The notes below the pieces were generated by a model. That model was not told the origin of the DNA and made no database searches. It worked only from the letters and a program-made list of their open reading frames with translations. A stretch of 53,188 nt of DNA from a bacterium. GTDB taxonomy: Bacteria; Cyanobacteriota; Vampirovibrionia; Gastranaerophilales; Gastranaerophilaceae. The DNA lies in assembly GCA_017512405.1 (NCBI GenBank), contig JAFWGJ010000027.1, positions 1 through 53,188 of the forward strand, given 5' to 3'. The position numbers were made by a program, and so were the translations under genes. Numbering within the stretch: the stretch's first letter is position 1; each line of letters opens with the position of its first letter. Positions 7,671 through 45,430 of the stretch are shown one piece after another.

Positions 7671-9404
7671 ATGCATCAGGAAGAATTTATTGCAGTAGCA
7701 TTAGGTGAAACAAAAGCAGATTTAGTTATTAAAAATGCAAAAGTTGTTAATGTATTAACAGAAGAAATATATGAATCGGAAGTTGCAATAGTAAAAGGTC
7801 GTATTGCAGGAGTCGGCAAAAATTATGAAGGCGAAAAAGAGATAGATTTAAAAGGTGCTTATTTGACACCCGGATTTATTGACGGCCATGTTCATATAGA
7901 AAGTTCAATGATGCTTCCTCATAGATTTGCACAGGCAGTAGTTCCGGCGGGTACAACAACAGCAATTATCGACCCTCACGAAATAGCTAATGTTTTAGGT
8001 TTGCACGGTATTAGTTTTATGCACGCTGCAACAAGAGAGTTACCATTGAGAGTTTATACTATGCTTCCTTCTTGTGTTCCAGCAACTCCTTTTGAAACAT
8101 CAGGCTTTGAATTAAATGCTTATGATTTGTCATTATTAATGGATAGTGATTGGGTTGTAGGTCTTGCAGAAATGATGAATTTCCCCGGTGTTATTCACAG
8201 AGATAAAAATGTTATGGCAAAAATAGATCTTGCATTGAAAAATCAAAAACGCGTAGACGGACATGCACCGCAAGTTTCAGGAAAAGATTTGTGTGCTTAT
8301 ATTGCAAGCGGAGTAACATCAGACCACGAATGTACCGATCCTCAACAAGCAATTGAAAAATTAAGACAAGGTATGTATATTATGGTTCGTGAAGGTACGG
8401 CAGCAAAAGATTTAGATGCTTTAATGCCAATTCTTTTACATGATAATAATCGTAAAATAATGTTTGTAACTGACGACAGACATCCTGAGGATTTAACTGT
8501 TCATATTAACGGAATGGTTCAAAGAGCCGTTGAAAACAGGGTAAATCCGATAAAAGCAATTCAAATGGCAAGTTTGAATACTGCGGAATACTTTAAAATT
8601 CAAGACTTAGGAGCTATTGCCCCTGGTTATAGAGCAGATTTTAACGTATTTGAAAACTTACAAGAATTTAAAAAACCTTTAATGGTATTCAAAGGTGGTG
8701 AAGTAGTTGCAGAAAACGGTAAATTACTTGACGATTTGGAAAATATTGAAATTCCTGCAACTCGTGGTTCTGTAAATGTTGGCTGGCTTGAAGATGATTG
8801 TTTTCAAATAGAAGCTCGGGGTAAAAAAGCAAAGGCAATAGAGATTATTCCTCATCAGTTAATTACAAAGGAAACAATAATTAATGTTAAAGAAAAAGAT
8901 GGTTTTGCTATATCAAATGTGAAAGAAGATGTCCTTAAAATTTGTGTAGTAGAGCGTCATAGAGCAAGTGGTAACATTGGTAAAGGCTTCGTTAAAGGAT
9001 TTGGGATTAAAGAAGGTGCAATAGCATCAACAGTTGCTCACGATTCGCATAATATGATTATTATCGGAACAAACGATAAAGACATGTTATTAGCACAAAA
9101 AGAACTTGTAAAATCACAGGGTGGTAAGGTTGTTATTAAAAACGGCGAGGTTCTTGCAAAATTACCGCTACCGGTTGCAGGTTTAATGTCGGATAAAGAT
9201 ATCAATTATGTAACAGAGCAATCAGAAGCATTAAACAAAGCTGCAAAAGAAATAGGTTGTGTTGTGGATGATCCGTTTATGACAATGGGCTTTTTATCAT
9301 TACCTGTAATTCCTGAAATAAAGATTACCGATAAAGGTATTTTTTCAACGAAAGGTTTCAATTTTATAGATATATTTGATGTTGAAACGGTAGAAACCAA
9401 ATAA
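7671..9404 (+). CDS. ade: Adenine deaminase
   Basis: 577 aa. Amidohydrolase metal motif GFIDGHVHIESSMM, and length typical of Ade. Confidence 0.9.
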   Translation: MHQEEFIAVALGETKADLVIKNAKVVNVLTEEIYESEVAIVKGRIAGVGKNYEGEKEIDLKGAYLTPGFIDGHVHIESSMMLPHRFAQAVVPAGTTTAIIDPHEIANVLGLHGISFMHAATRELPLRVYTMLPSCVPATPFETSGFELNAYDLSLLMDSDWVVGLAEMMNFPGVIHRDKNVMAKIDLALKNQKRVDGHAPQVSGKDLCAYIASGVTSDHECTDPQQAIEKLRQGMYIMVREGTAAKDLDALMPILLHDNNRKIMFVTDDRHPEDLTVHINGMVQRAVENRVNPIKAIQMASLNTAEYFKIQDLGAIAPGYRADFNVFENLQEFKKPLMVFKGGEVVAENGKLLDDLENIEIPATRGSVNVGWLEDDCFQIEARGKKAKAIEIIPHQLITKETIINVKEKDGFAISNVKEDVLKICVVERHRASGNIGKGFVKGFGIKEGAIASTVAHDSHNMIIIGTNDKDMLLAQKELVKSQGGKVVIKNGEVLAKLPLPVAGLMSDKDINYVTEQSEALNKAAKEIGCVVDDPFMTMGFLSLPVIPEIKITDKGIFSTKGFNFIDIFDVETVETK

Positions 9405-9406
9405 GT

Positions 9407-9438
9407 AAAAAAGGCTTTGATTAATCAAAGCCTTTTTT
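9407..9438 (+). terminator. Rho-independent terminator after ade
   Basis: AAAAAGGCTTTGATTAATCAAAGCCTTTTTT: a 10-bp perfect stem (GGCTTTGATT/AATCAAAGCC) followed by a T-run. Confidence 0.8.
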
Positions 9439-9557
9439 ATTTCTAAATTTTTGCAATGAATAAATGTAACAAAATTTAACATCAGGCTAAAATCATGGCA
9501 ATTATTCCGTTTCAGAACTTTTTATTATATTAGATAGTTCTGTAATTAGGTAAAAGT

Positions 9558-28459: not shown

Positions 28460-28478
28460 TAGTATTCAAACTAATAAT

Positions 28479-37680: not shown

Positions 37681-38082
37681 TTATTTAATCTGAAATACAC
37701 ATTTTGTGCAGTAACCCCTGGGTGTAAGAACCATATTATCTTCTAAATCATACATTTGTTCAATTCTTACTTTTAGAAGAGATTTACATTTTGGACAATA
37801 TAATTCTGTTTCACCATTAAGAATACGTTGTTTTAAAACATCCATGACTTCCATTGGTACTTCTTCAAATTCAAAATCTTTTTCAAGAACTTTTAGTTCA
37901 TCAGCAAGACAGCGTAACCCTTTGGCTAAATTTTGCCTAACCGTAACCGACAAAAATAACTCACGTCCGGCTTCAATTTCTTCAATAATTACAGCAGGAA
38001 CATTACATTTTTTTGACAAGCCAAACGGAGTAAGTCCCAGAGCTTCTCTTTTTCTTTGTACAAATTGAGCCAATGTATCCAT
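37681..38082 (-). CDS. XRE-family helix-turn-helix protein with a C-terminal zinc-ribbon
   Basis: N-terminal HTH (RKREALGLTPFGLSKKCNVPAVIIEEIEAG) and a CPKC...CTKC four-Cys ribbon. Confidence 0.65.
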   Translation of the reverse strand: MDTLAQFVQRKREALGLTPFGLSKKCNVPAVIIEEIEAGRELFLSVTVRQNLAKGLRCLADELKVLEKDFEFEEVPMEVMDVLKQRILNGETELYCPKCKSLLKVRIEQMYDLEDNMVLTPRGYCTKCVFQIK

Positions 38083-38213: not shown

Positions 38214-38470
38214 AAAAATGTACATATTATGCATTTGAATTTTGCAAGTGGGAGTCTTGCATAGAATTATTTTTTAAGTCTGTTTAATTAAAACCACAAA
38301 ATCGCAAATACGAAGAGTATATCTATCGTATAGCTTAGTTTGTCTGTTAAAATTTATGTTTTAATGGTCTACTTTGTATTGCGAAAATTTTGAAATGTTG
38401 ATTTTTTTAAAATCATCATTAAAAACAAAAAATGAGAGATGAGAGAATAAGAAGATGAGGAGAGATGCTT

Positions 38471-39370
38471 ATGAGAAATTGTCCTGTTGAAATGAAAAAA
38501 GGTTTTACAAATCCTGCAAAAAGCGAAGTTGTTGCAAGCGAAAATGATTCTACATTATCAGTTTATGTAAGAGAATTAGCTTCAATCAAAACATTATCAC
38601 CATTTGAAGAAAAAGAAATTGCAAAAAAAGCTGCTGAAGGTGATATGGAAGCTAAAAAACAATTAGTTCAAGCTAATTTAAAATTAGTTATCACAATTGC
38701 AAAAAAAGCAATTCACATGTCAAATTTACCTATGGTTGATTTAATTCAAGAAGGTAACTTAGGTCTTATGATTGCTGCTGAAAAATTTAACTGGAAATTA
38801 GGTTACAAATTTTCAACTTATGCAAGCTGGTGGATTAAACAATCTATGTTCAAAGCTATTTCTGAACAAGGTCACTGCATGAAGATTCCTGTATATATTC
38901 AAGAAACATTATCAAAATTCTCAAAAGTTAAATCTGAAATGGAAAAACAATACAACTGTCAAGTAAATACAAAAGATGTTGCTCAAAGAATGAACATTTC
39001 TGCAGATAAAATTGATACATATTTATCAGCATATTCAAAATCAGTATCATTAGAAGGCGGTTTTGAAAACAATGACGGTAAAGAAACATCATTAGCAGAA
39101 ATTTTGGCAGATGAAAAAGCAAGCGTTCATTCATCAGTTGAATTTGAAGGCTTAAAGAAAGATATCGAAATGGTTGTTTCAACATTAAAAGAACGTGAAC
39201 AAGAAGTTGTAAGAATGCGTTATGGCTTAGGTAATGTTGCTAAGAAAACATTGGAAGAAATTGGCAATATCTACGGCGTAACAAAAGAATGTATCAGACA
39301 AACAGAAATCAGAGCTTTGAAAAAAATGAAAGCTCAAGCACAAGAAGTTTTAGCTTGCTATATGGACTAA
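38471..39370 (+). CDS. RpoD-family (sigma70) RNA polymerase sigma factor lacking region 1.1
   Basis: Regions 2-4: LVITIAKK, FSTYASWWIKQSMFKAISEQGHCMKIPVY, LEEIGNIYGVTKECIRQTEIRALKKMK. ATG 38471 sits 8 nt after GGAG; the track start 38465 abuts the SD. Confidence 0.85.
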   Translation: MRNCPVEMKKGFTNPAKSEVVASENDSTLSVYVRELASIKTLSPFEEKEIAKKAAEGDMEAKKQLVQANLKLVITIAKKAIHMSNLPMVDLIQEGNLGLMIAAEKFNWKLGYKFSTYASWWIKQSMFKAISEQGHCMKIPVYIQETLSKFSKVKSEMEKQYNCQVNTKDVAQRMNISADKIDTYLSAYSKSVSLEGGFENNDGKETSLAEILADEKASVHSSVEFEGLKKDIEMVVSTLKEREQEVVRMRYGLGNVAKKTLEEIGNIYGVTKECIRQTEIRALKKMKAQAQEVLACYMD

Positions 39371-39514
39371 TAAGTTTACGAGATTGTACTCAGCTTAAAA
39401 GTCCAAGAAAGTTGAGTAGAGTTATAGCGAGGAAAAATAATAGAGAGAAAATAAGGATATTAGAAGAAAGACAAAAACATTTTAAACATCATCATTCATC
39501 ATCTTTTTCAAATA

Positions 39515-39545
39515 AAAACGGCGGAACATATGTTCCGCCGTTTTT
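39515..39545. terminator. Bidirectional rho-independent terminator
   Basis: AAAAACGGCGGAACA-TA-TGTTCCGCCGTTTTT, between convergent genes. Confidence 0.85.
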
Positions 39546-39547
39546 AT

Positions 39548-40222
39548 TTATACCAGTCCTTCTTTTACTGCCTTTACTGCTGCTTGAACACGGTCATTTA
39601 CACACATTTTTTGTAAAATAGAACAAACATGTGCTTTTGCTGTATGAACGCTTACAATTAATTCTTTTGCAATTTCAGTATTACTTTTACCTGTAACCAG
39701 ATGTTTTAAAACTTCGTATTCTCTTTCTGTTAGCGGAACTCTGCCTTCTTGTGAAGAATTGCCTGCTAAAAGTCTTGTATTTTCGGGCTTTGGAAAGGAA
39801 CTTAATGCCAATTGTGCGATTTCAGGGTCAAGCCAGCAAACTCCGTTTGCAACATCTCTTACTACATCTGCAAGTTTATTTGGGTCAATATCTTTCATAC
39901 AATAACCTGTTGCTCCCGAACTTAATGCAGCTACTACTTCTTCCTCTCTATCGTGAGATGTAAGCGCTATTATTTTTATTTTCGGATTTATTTCTTTTGC
40001 TTTTATTGTTGCTTCAATACCGTTCATACCCGGTAAACCTAAATCCATGAGTACAACATCAGGGTTATATTTTTGGATTAAATTCAGCCCCTCATTGGCA
40101 TCCTCACACTCGGCTAATACTTCAATGTCTTCATTAGCATTAAGCGCACATCTTAAACCGACTCTTGTTAATTTGAAATCTTCAATAATAATAACTGAAA
40201 TGGTTTTTGTTGCTACTGTCAT
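39548..40222 (-). CDS. NarL/LuxR-family two-component response regulator
   Basis: REC domain (IIIEDF..., DVVLMDLGLPGMNG) and a LuxR HTH (LTEREYEVLKHLVTGKSNTEIAKELIVSVHTAKAHV). Confidence 0.9.
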   Translation of the reverse strand: MTVATKTISVIIIEDFKLTRVGLRCALNANEDIEVLAECEDANEGLNLIQKYNPDVVLMDLGLPGMNGIEATIKAKEINPKIKIIALTSHDREEEVVAALSSGATGYCMKDIDPNKLADVVRDVANGVCWLDPEIAQLALSSFPKPENTRLLAGNSSQEGRVPLTEREYEVLKHLVTGKSNTEIAKELIVSVHTAKAHVCSILQKMCVNDRVQAAVKAVKEGLV

Positions 40223-41583: not shown

Positions 41584-43785
41584 TTAATTTCTTTTATAAA
41601 ATTTAACAGATTTTATTGTTATAGGCCTATTTGTTTTTATTGTAATTGTTTTGATATCAGTATTTAAGAGCCAAGACGGAAAATTATCAAACGGAAACAA
41701 TACGGATGTTTGTTTTGATTTAAAATGTAAATCGGAATTACTATTATTAATTGAAATAGTATATTCAATATCTTTGTTATCAGTATTTAATTCAACTAAA
41801 TCGATATTTTTACCGTTTTGAGGAATATCAAATTTAATAATATTACCATTTAAAGAATAATTTATATTTAAATTTTTAACAGGCAATGAGTTTATAGAAT
41901 TAAACCAAGCATCAGGTAAATATTCTAAATTATTTGTCGAGAGTACTTTGTCCAATAAGTACATATCTTTATTATTTTTATTATTTTTTATAAAGAAAAC
42001 GTTATTTTCTGTTTTAAATGTTGAGTATTCATTATTTAAAACTAAATTTCTGTATAACGGATTAATTCTTAGTGATGGATAAATATTATCAAATCTGTTA
42101 AGATAAGTTTTTAAAAGAACTATTTTAGGTTGGACGTGTGCAATTTTGTAACTTTGTTTAGAATTCGTCATAATAAAATATGATGTATATGGTATTGGCA
42201 TTTTTTTATTAAAGATAAAATAGTTTGCCCCACTATTTAAGTCGAGAAAATCTGCGTTGGGGTATTTTTCAAAAATAGAGTTTATTTCATTATTATTTTG
42301 TAGTTTGAGGTTAAAGCTTTTCCATTTATTTAAAGTCGTAGAATTCATAAATATCAAGTAGATAGCCATTATTGAGGCAACATACTTAGGTGCTTTGCTG
42401 TTTATGAATAACAGAGGAATAATTACAGTTAAATATGACAGCGAAATTTCTCGAATTCTTAACATTAAAATTCCGTCTATTCTGCCTAATGAATAGCTTG
42501 TCGATAAGCATACGTATAAAATTGCAAAAATGAGTAGAAAAATATTTTTAACATTTTTATTTTTAAATTCTTCAAAAAGTTTAATTATGAAATACGGTAC
42601 CACTAATAATGCAAAAAGTTTTATACAATCAGAGGGTATTTGCTGCCATTTGAATAAAGGAAAATCGTTTCCAAATGAGAATATATTGCTTTGTATATAA
42701 TTAGCTGATTCAATTAAGTAATAATAAATAAAATCTTTATTAAAATAGATAATTAATCCGATTAATATTACAGAAATATATTTATGAGGTTGTTTTATAA
42801 AAACATATATTGCGAGTGGTAAACTTGCAAGAATCCAATAATTACCATGACCTATGTAGAAAAATAATGCAATGTATGCGAAATTTATATATAAGATTAC
42901 CCAAACTAATGGTTTTATTTTAAATGCAGATTTTAAGAAAAAAAAGTAGCTTAATATATACAATTGTGGAATATTAAATGCTCTAAATGCTGACAGAAAG
43001 ATTAAAATGGGGTATTCTTTAAAGATATAATATGAAAAAGTTATCGTTAATATAAGTATAAAATTATCAAAAAGACTTCTTCCTAAAAAAAATGCATTCA
43101 AAGAATTTTCGCCAAATATTTTTTCTCCAAGCAATGGCGGTATAATATCACAAAAACCATGAACCAACGATATATCTTTGTAGTAAGTTAAATTAAATTT
43201 GCTGTGCATAAGCCAAGTTGCCAGCTTTTCACCCTCATGAAATATATCGATTGTTATATTTTCAAAATTATAACCGTTGCCAAAAAACAAGATAAAAAGT
43301 GGGATGAATGCAAATATTGAAAGTTCTGCTTTTTCTTTTTTATAAAGATTTATATAAGAAGATATTATTGATAAAATTATAAAAAATATTATTAAACCCG
43401 CAAGTATAGGGTAAAAATGTCCATTGAAGGGATGTAAAATTATATAGCCGAATGACAAAACTGTTTGAATTGCCATACATAAATGCTTGTGGCTTTGTAT
43501 ATGATACTTAATATCAAAATTTATATCAGGAAGTTCAAATTTAAAATTTATCTTTGGAAGAGGTTTATAAATTGGAATAATTACAAAAAAAAGTGCAACA
43601 TATAAGGGAAACATTGCTAAATCTAAGTATTTATTATGATTTTTATATATTGAATCTCCGACATAAAAATCATTTAAATTTGTATATCCTACAATATCAT
43701 ACAAAAAATGATAAATTAAGCACACAATGCCGCATGACAATAACGAAATTATTATATAATCAAAAATGCTTAAACGTTTATTCAT
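41584..43785 (-). CDS. Large polytopic membrane protein (733 aa) with a C-terminal soluble domain, function unknown
   Basis: About 15 hydrophobic helices over ~500 aa, then an Asn/Lys-rich soluble C-terminus. No catalytic motif recognised. Confidence 0.6.
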   Translation of the reverse strand: MNKRLSIFDYIIISLLSCGIVCLIYHFLYDIVGYTNLNDFYVGDSIYKNHNKYLDLAMFPLYVALFFVIIPIYKPLPKINFKFELPDINFDIKYHIQSHKHLCMAIQTVLSFGYIILHPFNGHFYPILAGLIIFFIILSIISSYINLYKKEKAELSIFAFIPLFILFFGNGYNFENITIDIFHEGEKLATWLMHSKFNLTYYKDISLVHGFCDIIPPLLGEKIFGENSLNAFFLGRSLFDNFILILTITFSYYIFKEYPILIFLSAFRAFNIPQLYILSYFFFLKSAFKIKPLVWVILYINFAYIALFFYIGHGNYWILASLPLAIYVFIKQPHKYISVILIGLIIYFNKDFIYYYLIESANYIQSNIFSFGNDFPLFKWQQIPSDCIKLFALLVVPYFIIKLFEEFKNKNVKNIFLLIFAILYVCLSTSYSLGRIDGILMLRIREISLSYLTVIIPLLFINSKAPKYVASIMAIYLIFMNSTTLNKWKSFNLKLQNNNEINSIFEKYPNADFLDLNSGANYFIFNKKMPIPYTSYFIMTNSKQSYKIAHVQPKIVLLKTYLNRFDNIYPSLRINPLYRNLVLNNEYSTFKTENNVFFIKNNKNNKDMYLLDKVLSTNNLEYLPDAWFNSINSLPVKNLNINYSLNGNIIKFDIPQNGKNIDLVELNTDNKDIEYTISINNSNSDLHFKSKQTSVLFPFDNFPSWLLNTDIKTITIKTNRPITIKSVKFYKRN

Positions 43786-43837
43786 AATTGTATTTTACAA
43801 TAAAAAATTATTGTAATAGTCTATAATTATACAAAAT

Positions 43838-43862
43838 AACATTTTATAAGAAGTGTTATTTA
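43838..43862. repeat. Left arm of a perfect 25-bp inverted repeat
   Basis: AACATTTTATAAGAAGTGTTATTTA is the exact reverse complement of 44281-44305. It extends to 43834/44309 with one T-G apposition. Confidence 0.95.
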
Positions 43863-44280
43863 TGAATATTTTTATATACAATTTAACTTGTCCTGCTCGG
43901 ACAGAGGGAACTTTTGGTGGCAAAAGTTCCACAAAAGCCACGACCAAATTTCCATTCATTAATTTTCACTAAATTCAACTTGAGCAAGCAAACTCACTAC
44001 GTTCAAACAATGCTTGCTTTGTTGTTGTTTCATTAAGTGAAAATTATTCATTACAATATGGTCGTTATAATAAAAAATCGCCCTTTGCGGAATGAACCAT
44101 AATTGTTATGTTCTGTGAAAATTAGTCCGCATTGTCTGAACAACTACAATTTTATGTGAGTTTGCGGACTTGATACAGAACATTTACAAATTATGAGAGA
44201 ATGAAGCGTAGGGCAGGAGTTTCTTTGTACCACGTTTCTTTGCGGTCAAAGAAATGTGGTGTAAAAATATAATAATATGT
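43863..44280 (+). ncRNA. Candidate large structured RNA (family unknown) or the cargo of a MITE-like element
   Basis: No ORF of 60 aa or more on any frame. 29/60 G+C at 43891-43950 against 8/60 at 43801-43860. Nested helices: H1 43907-43930, H2 43940-44065, H3 44098-44195, H4 44224-44265, closed by 43891-43896/44213-44218. Every non-Watson-Crick apposition I found inside a helix is G-T on the + strand. Confidence 0.4.
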
Positions 44281-44305
44281 TAAATAACACTTCTTATAAA
44301 ATGTT
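44281..44305. repeat. Right arm of a perfect 25-bp inverted repeat
   Basis: TAAATAACACTTCTTATAAAATGTT, the reverse complement of 43838-43862. Confidence 0.95.
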
Positions 44306-44335
44306 GTTTATATAGATGCCCAAATAAAGTTTTAT

Positions 44336-45430
44336 TTAAGCATCAATAATTCCACCGCCAAGGACTAAATCATTATCATAAAAAACAATGGACTGTCCTA
44401 TTGCTATTGATTTTTGCATGTTTTCAAAATGAACTTTTATATTTTCGCTATCAATTTGTAAAAATTCAACAGGGGTTAATTCTTGCGTTGAACGAATTTT
44501 TGCCATACATTTTAAATTTTTAGGCATTTCGTCAAAAGCTATCCAATTTAATTTTGTAGCAACAAGTTCATCTTTCATTGTTTCGTCTTTAAATCCTACA
44601 ACAACTTCATTTGTATCTTTACGTAATTCAATAACATAAAGAGCCTCAGTTGAAGATACACCAAGCCCCTTTCTTTGACCAATTGTATAATTCCAAATTC
44701 CGTTGTGTGTTCCTAAGATTTTTCCTGATTTGTCCACAATATTTCCTTGCTTATCCTGAACTTCAAGTAATTCGTTATAATCACCTTCGTAAAAATCCTG
44801 ACTGTCAGGTTTATCATGAACTGTAATACCGGCATTTTTCGCAATTTCTCTTATTTCTTCTTTCGTGTATTCACCAAGCGGCAGAATAATATTTTTTAAT
44901 TGCTCTTGTGTTAATCTATACAAAAAATAAGATTGATCTTTCTTTAAATTTGAACCTTTTTTTAAATAAAATCTACCGTTTTCTTCAATAACTTTTGCAT
45001 AGTGTCCTGTTGCAAACTTATCAAATTCAATTCCGTTTAATTTTGCAATACGTGGCAAAACATCAAATTTGATGAGACTATTACACCAAATACAAGGATT
45101 TGGTGTTCTTCCTTGCAAATACTCTTTTTTAAAATTTTCCAAAACTATTTTTTCATATTGTTCTGCACAATCAAAAACGTGATAAGGTATTCCAATTTGT
45201 TCGCAAATTTTTCGCCCTGCTTCAATATCTTCTTTTTCATCAGGGCCGTAGCAAGCACCATGTGTAGATTTTGGTTTTAATCTGTTCATTTTTTCTTGAA
45301 TTTTTTTTTGCACGCCGTTTTTGCCCCAAATAGACATTGTTGCGCCAATTACTTCGTGCCCTTGTTGTTTTAATAAATATGCTGCAACAGCAGAATCTAC
45401 ACCGCCTGAAATTCCAACTAATATTTTCAT
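44336..45430 (-). CDS. mnmA: tRNA 2-thiouridine(34) synthase MnmA
   Basis: PP-loop GISGGVDSAV, and CNSLIKF. ATG 45430 (MKILVG...) follows AAAGGA; the track ORF extends 20 codons further upstream. Confidence 0.9.
   Translation of the reverse strand: MKILVGISGGVDSAVAAYLLKQQGHEVIGATMSIWGKNGVQKKIQEKMNRLKPKSTHGACYGPDEKEDIEAGRKICEQIGIPYHVFDCAEQYEKIVLENFKKEYLQGRTPNPCIWCNSLIKFDVLPRIAKLNGIEFDKFATGHYAKVIEENGRFYLKKGSNLKKDQSYFLYRLTQEQLKNIILPLGEYTKEEIREIAKNAGITVHDKPDSQDFYEGDYNELLEVQDKQGNIVDKSGKILGTHNGIWNYTIGQRKGLGVSSTEALYVIELRKDTNEVVVGFKDETMKDELVATKLNWIAFDEMPKNLKCMAKIRSTQELTPVEFLQIDSENIKVHFENMQKSIAIGQSIVFYDNDLVLGGGIIDA

Follow-up and report, generated by a model that had tools for sequence, protein, structure and literature searches.

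How should a stretch between two genes be read when it carries no gene of its own, folds into a large multi-arm structure and is bounded by a perfect inverted repeat? The question is raised by positions 43786-44335 of a 53,188-nt stretch of DNA (hereafter the window; contig JAFWGJ010000027.1 of GCA_017512405.1), one stretch of one Gastranaerophilales genome, which is bacterial and uses the standard genetic code. This gap separates mnmA, the gene of a tRNA 2-thiouridylase (44336-45430, - strand, with its true start at the ATG at 45430), from the gene of a polytopic membrane protein of 733 amino acids (aa) with a C-terminal beta-sandwich (41584-43785, - strand). Its longest open reading frame (ORF) encodes 54 aa, in agreement with a preliminary description of the DNA that had found no frame of 60 aa or more and had proposed a large structured RNA closed by a 25-bp repeat as its outer stem. 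Comparison with related loci points to a different answer. The element in the gap is probably a site-specific invertible DNA segment (inverton) that occupies the spacer between mnmA and the membrane-protein gene in one Gastranaerophilales clade, and its 25-bp repeat is better understood as a pair of inverted recombination sites than as the closing stem of an RNA, the segment being flipped in close relatives that include conspecific contigs.

Judged by mnmA, the relatives of this genome among representative genomes are Gastranaerophilales (Melainabacteria/Vampirovibrionia) represented by metagenome-assembled genomes (MAGs) from rumen and gut. Related contigs and loci, numbered below with an L, were fetched to a total of about 1.4 Mb (1.42 Mb), and two of them (L001 and L002) are from the same strain as the window. 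The comparisons draw on consensus assemblies and on few, closely related homologues.

Inversion of the segment at its recombination sites

When the element was used as an nhmmer query against all fetched loci it matched only between mnmA and the membrane-protein gene, where it lies in either of two orientations. Orientation A, that of the window and of L001 and L002, recurs in L006 (nhmmer) and in L100 (direct reading). Orientation B is carried by L005, L084/L085 and L087 and by the partial copies L083, L086 and L090 (all by nhmmer), as well as by L096-L098 (direct reading). The comparison takes in nine lineages or strains, and in six of these the strand that is '+' in the window is co-directional with the flanking genes. 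The earlier suggestion of an RNA transcribed antisense to both neighbours does not generalize, because most relatives carry the element the other way round. On a neighbour-joining tree of the membrane protein, orientation changed at least three times.

The two conspecific loci L006 and L087 locate the exchange. Their flanks are 98.9-99.1% identical, and the 464-bp interior is 99.6% identical and lies on the opposite strand. The left junction reads GCAACATTT-TATAAT-AAATGTTGTGTAAC in L006 and GCAACATTT-TATAAT-TAATGTTGCATAT in L087; the left inner half-site of L087 is the reverse complement of the right inner half-site of L006, and vice versa. The flanks keep the outer half-sites and the inner ones accompany the cargo, and the exchange point is confined to at most 8 nt around a 6-bp core, the longest identity shared by the two arms being the 8-mer TTTATAAT. 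An exchange inside this 8-mer, which is too short for ordinary homologous recombination, argues for a conservative site-specific recombinase. These assemblies thus record that a conserved, non-coding cargo has been inverted site-specifically at a position directly before the membrane-protein gene, and three features support placing the element among the invertons: the repeats, the presence of both orientations in one species and the confinement of the exchange to the core.

The anatomy of the repeats can be described in some detail. The element spans 476 bp, with arms of 29 nt each (43834-43862 and 44281-44309) that are complementary at 28 of 29 positions and enclose 418 bp; the 25/25 match reported before, and its extension to 43834/44309, are confirmed. 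The perfect 25-mer, AACATTTTATAAGAAGTGTTATTTA (43838-43862), is present at only these two places in the window, and none of 100 shuffles of the window gave a match to it. Each arm is itself palindromic, with half-sites of 11 nt on either side of 6 nt (11-6-11). In the left arm, beside the membrane-protein gene, the outer half-site AAATAACATTT (43834-43844) is followed by the asymmetric core TATAAG (43845-43850) and the inner half-site AAGTGTTATTT (43851-43861). The right arm, beside mnmA, presents the inner half-site AAATAACACTT (44282-44292), the core CTTATA (44293-44298), which is the reverse complement of TATAAG, and the outer half-site AAATGTTGTTT (44299-44309). Across relatives the site consensus is RYAACAWTT-TATAAT-WAATGTTRY. 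The core peculiar to the window (TATAAG, not TATAAT) and a half-site change are found in both arms, as would be expected if partner sites need to match. Judged by sequence, arms of this build with an asymmetric 6-bp core have the layout of tyrosine-recombinase sites such as dif, and a serine invertase with a 2-bp crossover may be the alternative. The half-site also agrees at 7 of 11 positions with the XerD arm of E. coli, which is a lead and not a test.

The site motif has no further occurrence in the 1.42 Mb of related DNA, and an exact scan of 185,579 representative genomes with a 22-mer of the repeat returned no match. A scan for the motif in larger collections gave 113 matches in metagenomes and nine in viral contigs. 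None of them came with the cargo, a convincing inverted partner or the flanking genes, and they were set aside as chance matches in AT-rich DNA. One metagenome contig from that scan (L189, 1065-5119) holds a related AT-rich palindrome that recurs several times within 4 kb, as AACATTTTGTAAAAAATGTA and in variant forms; it is unrelated to the cargo.

Several relatives have an empty site. In L088/L089, L091-L095 and L099 the stop codon of mnmA and the ATG of the membrane-protein gene are only 30-50 nt apart, from which it follows that the two genes are probably co-transcribed and that the element, where present, probably sits inside an operon spacer. The last 23-24 nt before the ATG are identical between empty and filled sites; in the window these are the 23 nt abutting the start codon (43786-43808, - strand; ATTTTTTATTGTAAAATACAATT in gene sense). 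In the neighbour-joining tree based on the membrane protein, the outgroups lack the element and most of the ingroup carries it; two nested empties (L088/L089 and L099) fall on different sub-branches and have an identical 9-nt spacer, GCATGTTTG. Read together with the stop codon (ATAA-GC-ATGTT-TG-TTTTT), this spacer loosely resembles the core and outer half-site of a filled site (ATAA-A-ATGTT-A-TTTT). In filled sites the 9 nt are replaced by a larger block, with no target-site duplication visible at the ends of the element when filled and empty sites are compared. The 9-nt spacer perhaps represents an ancestral pseudo-site, or else a scar left by excision.

In the DNA searched, the element was found at this one place only. 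A copy search by blastn and nhmmer found no second copy within the 53-kb window and a single locus only in the 1.4 Mb from relatives, and collections of phages and plasmids yielded no copy. Exact scans for two of the arms of the cargo described below, the first (H1) in viral contigs and an invariant 21-mer of the third (H3) in JGI metagenomes, gave no match.

The conserved cargo and its fold

Between the two sites lies the invertible cargo (43863-44280), which is 418 bp of non-coding and highly conserved DNA; the window has it in orientation A, in which the more stable '+' sense is antisense to the flanking genes. Over its 476 nt the element folds at -161 kcal/mol in the '+' sense, compared with -92 +/- 5.7 for shuffles (z = -12.1), and at -142.8 kcal/mol in the '-' sense (z = -9.7). 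The RNAalifold consensus is likewise lower in the '+' sense (-141 kcal/mol) than in the '-' sense (-130). The arms H1, H2, H3 and H4 that had been read from the sequence by eye all appear in both the minimum-free-energy and the consensus folds.

In order along the '+' strand, a small hairpin, TTGTCC-TGCTC-GGACAG (43888-43904), is 100% paired across the alignment and precedes H1 (43907-43930), a 10-bp hairpin of the form GGAACTTTTG-GTGG-CAAAAGTTCC in which two pairs change in compensatory fashion from G-C to A-U (L006/L087 and L100). H2 (43940-44065) is a 126-nt arm of three stacked helices with a compensatory change from A-U to C-G at its basal pair, and its apical loop contains GTTCAAACAA (44001-44010). 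H3 (44080-44214) is a 135-nt arm closed by GCCCT/AGGGC (44080-44084/44210-44214), with TTGTCTGAAC (44132-44141) in its apical loop, and is preceded by an A6 tract at 44072-44077 that becomes U6 in the '-' sense. H4 (44224-44265) is a 19-bp hairpin with a CGGT loop and one compensatory pair. Several assemblies break at H4: in independent short-read assemblies the breaks fall mostly at or near this 42-nt palindrome (element positions ~378-397) and not at the terminal repeats (L002, L086, L090 and L096-L098), probably because a long perfect hairpin gives rise to an artefact in the de Bruijn graph.

One of the helices proposed earlier did not survive. The stem TCCTGC/GCAGGA, which had been taken to close the junction, is absent from the predicted folds, and in L005 and L084 a G to A change (TCCTAC) disrupts its pairing; its place is taken by the hairpin at 43888-43904 and by the GCCCT/AGGGC stem that closes H3. 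The apical-loop sequences of H2 and H3 are complementary at nine of ten positions and are invariant. The triplet of TTTGCGG motifs seen before is present, as (C/G)TTTGCGG with spacings of 77 and 78 nt, and the GC skew flips sign in the middle of the element, which gives RNA from either strand a C-rich 5' half.

The composition of the element is less unusual than it had seemed. The hand counts of G+C (29/60 at 43891-43950 and 8/60 at 43801-43860) are exact, and the cargo is a G+C-enriched island when set against the AT-rich spacers (13-18%), but not when set against the genome: its interior has 33.7% G+C, compared with a window mean of 31.2% and 31.8% in mnmA. It is by conservation that the cargo differs from its neighbours. 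Between the window and L005, L006 and L084, nucleotide identity is 88-92.5% in the interior, 84-86% in mnmA and 69-71% in the membrane-protein gene, and all pairwise identities of the interior are close to 90%, a pattern that either strong constraint or horizontal spread would produce.

The pairs of the fold are largely retained as well. Over 120 interior pairs in nine sequences (five of them full-length and four partial), 97.3% of cells are paired, and when partners were slid against each other pairing fell to 39-49%. Compensatory change is seen at five pairs (two in H1, one at the base of H2, one in H3 and one in H4), a number reached by 3 of 500 shuffles, and the covariation score was reached by none of the 500, in a test whose power is low (about six distinct sequences at ~90% identity) and whose signal would be given equally by hairpins at the level of DNA. 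The '+' sense is the more stable by 5-14 kcal/mol in all four homologues compared. It had been claimed that G-T appositions inside helices occur on the '+' strand only; this is overstated, with 32 G-U cells in the '+' sense and 23 in the '-' sense, each counted on its own consensus fold. The preference for the '+' sense is real but modest.

What remains of the structured-RNA proposal is therefore a conserved, self-complementary, non-coding module with some compensatory changes, and what falls away is the outer repeat as an RNA helix. We regard the four-arm fold as the payload of the proposed switch, and it may exert its effect either in an RNA leader or at the level of DNA. The expectation that no catalogued family would be recognized was borne out: across the whole window Rfam 15 gave no match at gathering thresholds, and permissive filters (E up to 10) gave chance-level matches only, the best at E = 0.54. 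A scan of the whole window for tRNA and tmRNA genes found none. A conserved '-' strand frame of at least 30 aa (MN.N.VVAFVELLPPKV...) was also considered, and was rejected as coding because it has no ribosome-binding site and because the compensatory changes in the stems would be non-synonymous (E to K, P to S).

A possible regulatory switch and its rivals

In the mechanism that we propose, the segment is probably flipped by a tyrosine-type (Xer-like) recombinase encoded elsewhere, and the most likely effect is phase variation in the expression of the membrane protein encoded downstream, which is possibly glycosyltransferase-like. In orientation B, the commoner one, a transcript in the sense of mnmA would contain the more stable '+' fold, the TATAAT would face outward and the gene would be ON; in orientation A, that of the window, the transcript would contain the complementary, less stable RNA with U6 after the H3 arm and the gene would be OFF. 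The leader is indeed 5-15 kcal/mol more stable in orientation B, and in orientation A the H3 arm is followed in the transcript by a U6 tract. The TATAAT hexamer (44268-44273, '+' strand) is a candidate -10 box that faces out of the element and is found in seven of the eight aligned sequences that cover it. It faces the membrane-protein gene in orientation B, its -35 match is only 3/6 and it was not called by the promoter scan. The assignment of B to ON and A to OFF is a guess, made with low confidence, because no promoter, terminator or start-codon effect consistent with orientation was found.

A further idea, which we put forward tentatively and consider less likely than the inversion itself, is that inversion selects which strand of a ~420-nt four-arm RNA is transcribed within the mnmA/membrane-gene transcript, such that a leader (or non-coding RNA) is swapped for its complement and no promoter or terminator is moved. 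If true, the switch would amount to a flip-able riboregulator, which belongs to no class that is known to have been described.

Several observations weigh against a functioning inverton and have to be set beside those in its favor. The inversion is seen between consensus assemblies only. No recombinase was found in the 53-kb window, or beside the element in L005 (+/-10 kb) or L084, in a search that used phmmer with approximate XerD and Hin queries and Pfam on the flanking genes and on window ORFs not recognized by eye. The block inserted at filled sites is ~60 nt bigger than the invertible part (~30 nt on each side). No convincing sigma-70 promoter was found in the element, which has three promoter-like sites where shuffles would give 5.9. 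No intrinsic terminator consistent with orientation emerged from a terminator scan, a scan for hairpins followed by U-tracts or an inspection of the hairpins at the junctions of repeat and cargo; the latter are weak in the window, L005 and L084 (-3 to -7 kcal/mol) and terminator-like in both orientations of the L006/L087 pair (-12.1 and -15.3 kcal/mol). Start-codon accessibility does not change consistently between native leaders and leaders flipped in silico, and both strands fold well, with only a modest difference in G-U usage (32 against 23 cells).

DNA inversion switches are of course a known kind, and PhaseFinder has been used to catalogue invertons (Jiang et al. 2019, cited in PMC10994844). 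The cwpV switch of Clostridioides difficile is 195 bp long with 21-bp imperfect repeats, lies 57 bp from the start codon and contains neither promoter nor ORF; its tyrosine recombinase RecV is encoded elsewhere, and it acts through an RNA leader (PMC2784873). The flgB switch of C. difficile, likewise a RecV switch, acts through Rho (PMC7446863). The element described here resembles these two in being a short segment with imperfect inverted repeats just upstream of a surface-related gene, and here too the switch probably lies inside a transcribed spacer, as the short distances at the empty sites suggest. It is unlike them in that its cargo is twice as long, conserved across species and composed of four long arms, each a hairpin, in which compensatory changes occur, and in that its host is an uncultured, non-photosynthetic cyanobacterial lineage; a terminator formed in one orientation only, as at the repeat junction of cwpV, could not be shown in the present element. 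Other switches invert a promoter, among them fimS of E. coli, which has simple 9-bp repeats, and the capsule promoters of Bacteroides. Like these, the element has inverted repeats and inverts without leaving its place, it directly precedes a gene that probably acts at the cell surface, and its hosts live in gut or rumen. It differs from them in having no clear internal promoter beyond the lone TATAAT and an interior under stronger constraint than the neighbouring genes, and from fimS in the 11-6-11 build of its sites.

What is new is the lineage of the host, the presence of 11-6-11 sites with no recombinase found beside them and, above all, the 418-bp conserved four-arm cargo, and a full-text literature search met no description of a regulatory (non-hsdS) inverton in Melainabacteria. 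The locus would give an uncultured lineage of gut and rumen a concrete phase-variation switch before a gene that probably serves glycosylation of the cell surface. What sets the locus apart is the long non-coding segment, with its four conserved hairpin arms, that is kept more strictly than the genes on either side. If the fold regulates, the idea known from cwpV, of inversion acting via an RNA leader, would be extended to a far larger structured RNA.

The rival account that survives best, though we think it unlikely, is that of a selfish cassette like the Xer/dif modules, which would use its inverted dif-like sites to integrate downstream of mnmA, with inversion as a by-product and any regulation incidental. 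In the dif modules of Acinetobacter plasmids, inversely oriented 28-bp sites are built of an 11-nt arm, a 6-nt spacer and an 11-nt arm, and modules with inverted XerC/D sites do invert (PMC9947245, PMC13141974). The likeness, which is architectural only, takes in the build of the sites and the variable presence and orientation of the element. Patchy presence, including the two nested empty sites with the same spacer, and a star-like element identity of ~90% whatever the divergence of the hosts would also be compatible with horizontal spread. However, such a module would be expected on different replicons or in different contexts, whereas the present element is chromosomal and gene-free, is always flanked by mnmA and the membrane-protein gene, and has no match in plasmid, phage, viral or JGI metagenome collections. 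A single locus in all the related DNA, with the site motif nowhere else there, and an inserted block bigger than the segment between the sites are likewise at odds with a mobile cassette.

The free-standing gene for a large structured non-coding RNA, in which the 25-bp repeat closes the RNA as a helix and the occurrence of two orientations is a historical accident of no consequence, now seems improbable. It would account for the very stable fold of both strands, the conserved helices with their five compensatory pairs, an interior better conserved than the flanking genes, the consistently more stable '+' sense and the want of a match to any known family. Rfam includes several large, structured non-coding RNAs whose function is unknown, such as OLE, GOLLD, ROOL, HEARO and raiA, and the element is like them in its length of several hundred nucleotides and in its multi-arm, non-coding fold with some covariation. 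It is unlike them in being bounded by recombination sites, in inverting, in its restriction to one narrow clade and locus and in matching no Rfam family. An RNA gene of this sort would also leave unexplained why each arm of its closing helix is palindromic around an asymmetric core that is inverted between the arms, and why the segment flips exactly at that core between conspecific contigs. Nor would it be expected to lie now on one strand and now on the other, in sister lineages whose flanks are fixed; no promoter or terminator brackets it, and it is missing from nested relatives. For screens that aim at RNA discovery the locus holds a warning: what looks like a long, perfect "closing helix" of a structured island can turn out to be two recombination sites.

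It had also been suggested that the element is a miniature inverted-repeat transposable element, a non-autonomous transposon with terminal inverted repeats moved by a transposase. This fits its terminal repeats, its small size, its lack of coding capacity and its patchy, insertion-like distribution with presence/absence polymorphism, and there the agreement ends: no second copy exists in the window or the related loci, the repeat is absent from the representative genomes scanned, the ends have neither a visible target-site duplication nor a transposase-type structure, the position is always the same, and inversion in place at a 6-bp core is the behaviour of a recombinase and not of a transposase. 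We consider this origin very improbable. That the two orientations are assembly artefacts of the inverted repeat is harder still to credit, for although the ends of several contigs fall within the element or close to it (L002, L003, L083, L086, L090 and L096-L098), arms of 21-29 nt (imperfect in L006 and L087) are shorter than typical final assembly k-mers and assemblers would therefore not lose the orientation, most of the breaks are at the H4 palindrome and not at the repeats, and each orientation is present in several independent samples and assemblers.

The downstream gene and other features of the window

The membrane protein downstream of the putative switch has no Pfam match at E up to 10 and no sequence match in the PDB. 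Its AlphaFold2 model (predicted local distance difference test 86, predicted template modelling (TM) score 0.85) has ~13-15 transmembrane helices followed by the C-terminal beta-sandwich. Foldseek searches of the PDB gave weak matches only, led by AglB, STT3 and PglB, which are oligosaccharyltransferases (best E = 5e-3, TM-score ~0.26-0.29), and the C-terminal domain weakly matches carbohydrate-binding modules. The model tentatively suggests a role in surface glycosylation, which would be fitting for a phase-variable gene. In the public gene call this protein is shorter (676 aa; P0001, 92% coverage), because an internal Met is taken as its start. On the alignment the 733-aa ORF that begins at 43785 is to be taken as the real one, because homologues of 731-750 aa align over its full length.

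Other features of the window may be noted briefly. A pair of tandem paralogues, of 562 aa (28537-30225) and 563 aa (30405-32096), lies on the - strand; the first has a weak match to calpain-type Peptidase_C2, and the second was assigned via its similarity to the first. Palindromes of the AAATCCTAAAT type, which are alike, lie near 28472-28525 and 30348-30385, and genes related to this pair adjoin the membrane-protein gene in L084, L090, L091 and L095. Two overlapping tandem genes on the + strand (34123-35550 and 35547-37010) encode polytopic membrane proteins of 475 and 487 aa that have no Pfam match at E up to 10 and that by eye resemble further membrane proteins of a glycosyltransferase-like kind. 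A further inverted repeat, of 23 nt per arm (37820-37842 and 39700-39722, 91% complementary and 1857 nt apart), surrounds a sigma-70-family gene (38465-39370); the homologous region of L047 is colinear and gives no sign of inversion there.

Contigs with a Gastranaerophilales-type mnmA (70-90% identical) were also met in MAGs under unrelated labels, namely Muribaculaceae (L004 and L033), Fusobacterium (L010), a Methanomethylophilaceae archaeon (L025), Alistipes senegalensis (L047), a Methanobacteriaceae archaeon (L050) and Acinetobacter (L080). The probable cause is mis-binning of the contigs or mislabelling of the MAGs. Finally, perfect or near-perfect palindromes with 20-25 nt per arm and A- and T-tracts are situated at gene ends at 9403-9442, 28472-28525 and 39510-39549, and from their sequence they are likely to be bidirectional terminators.

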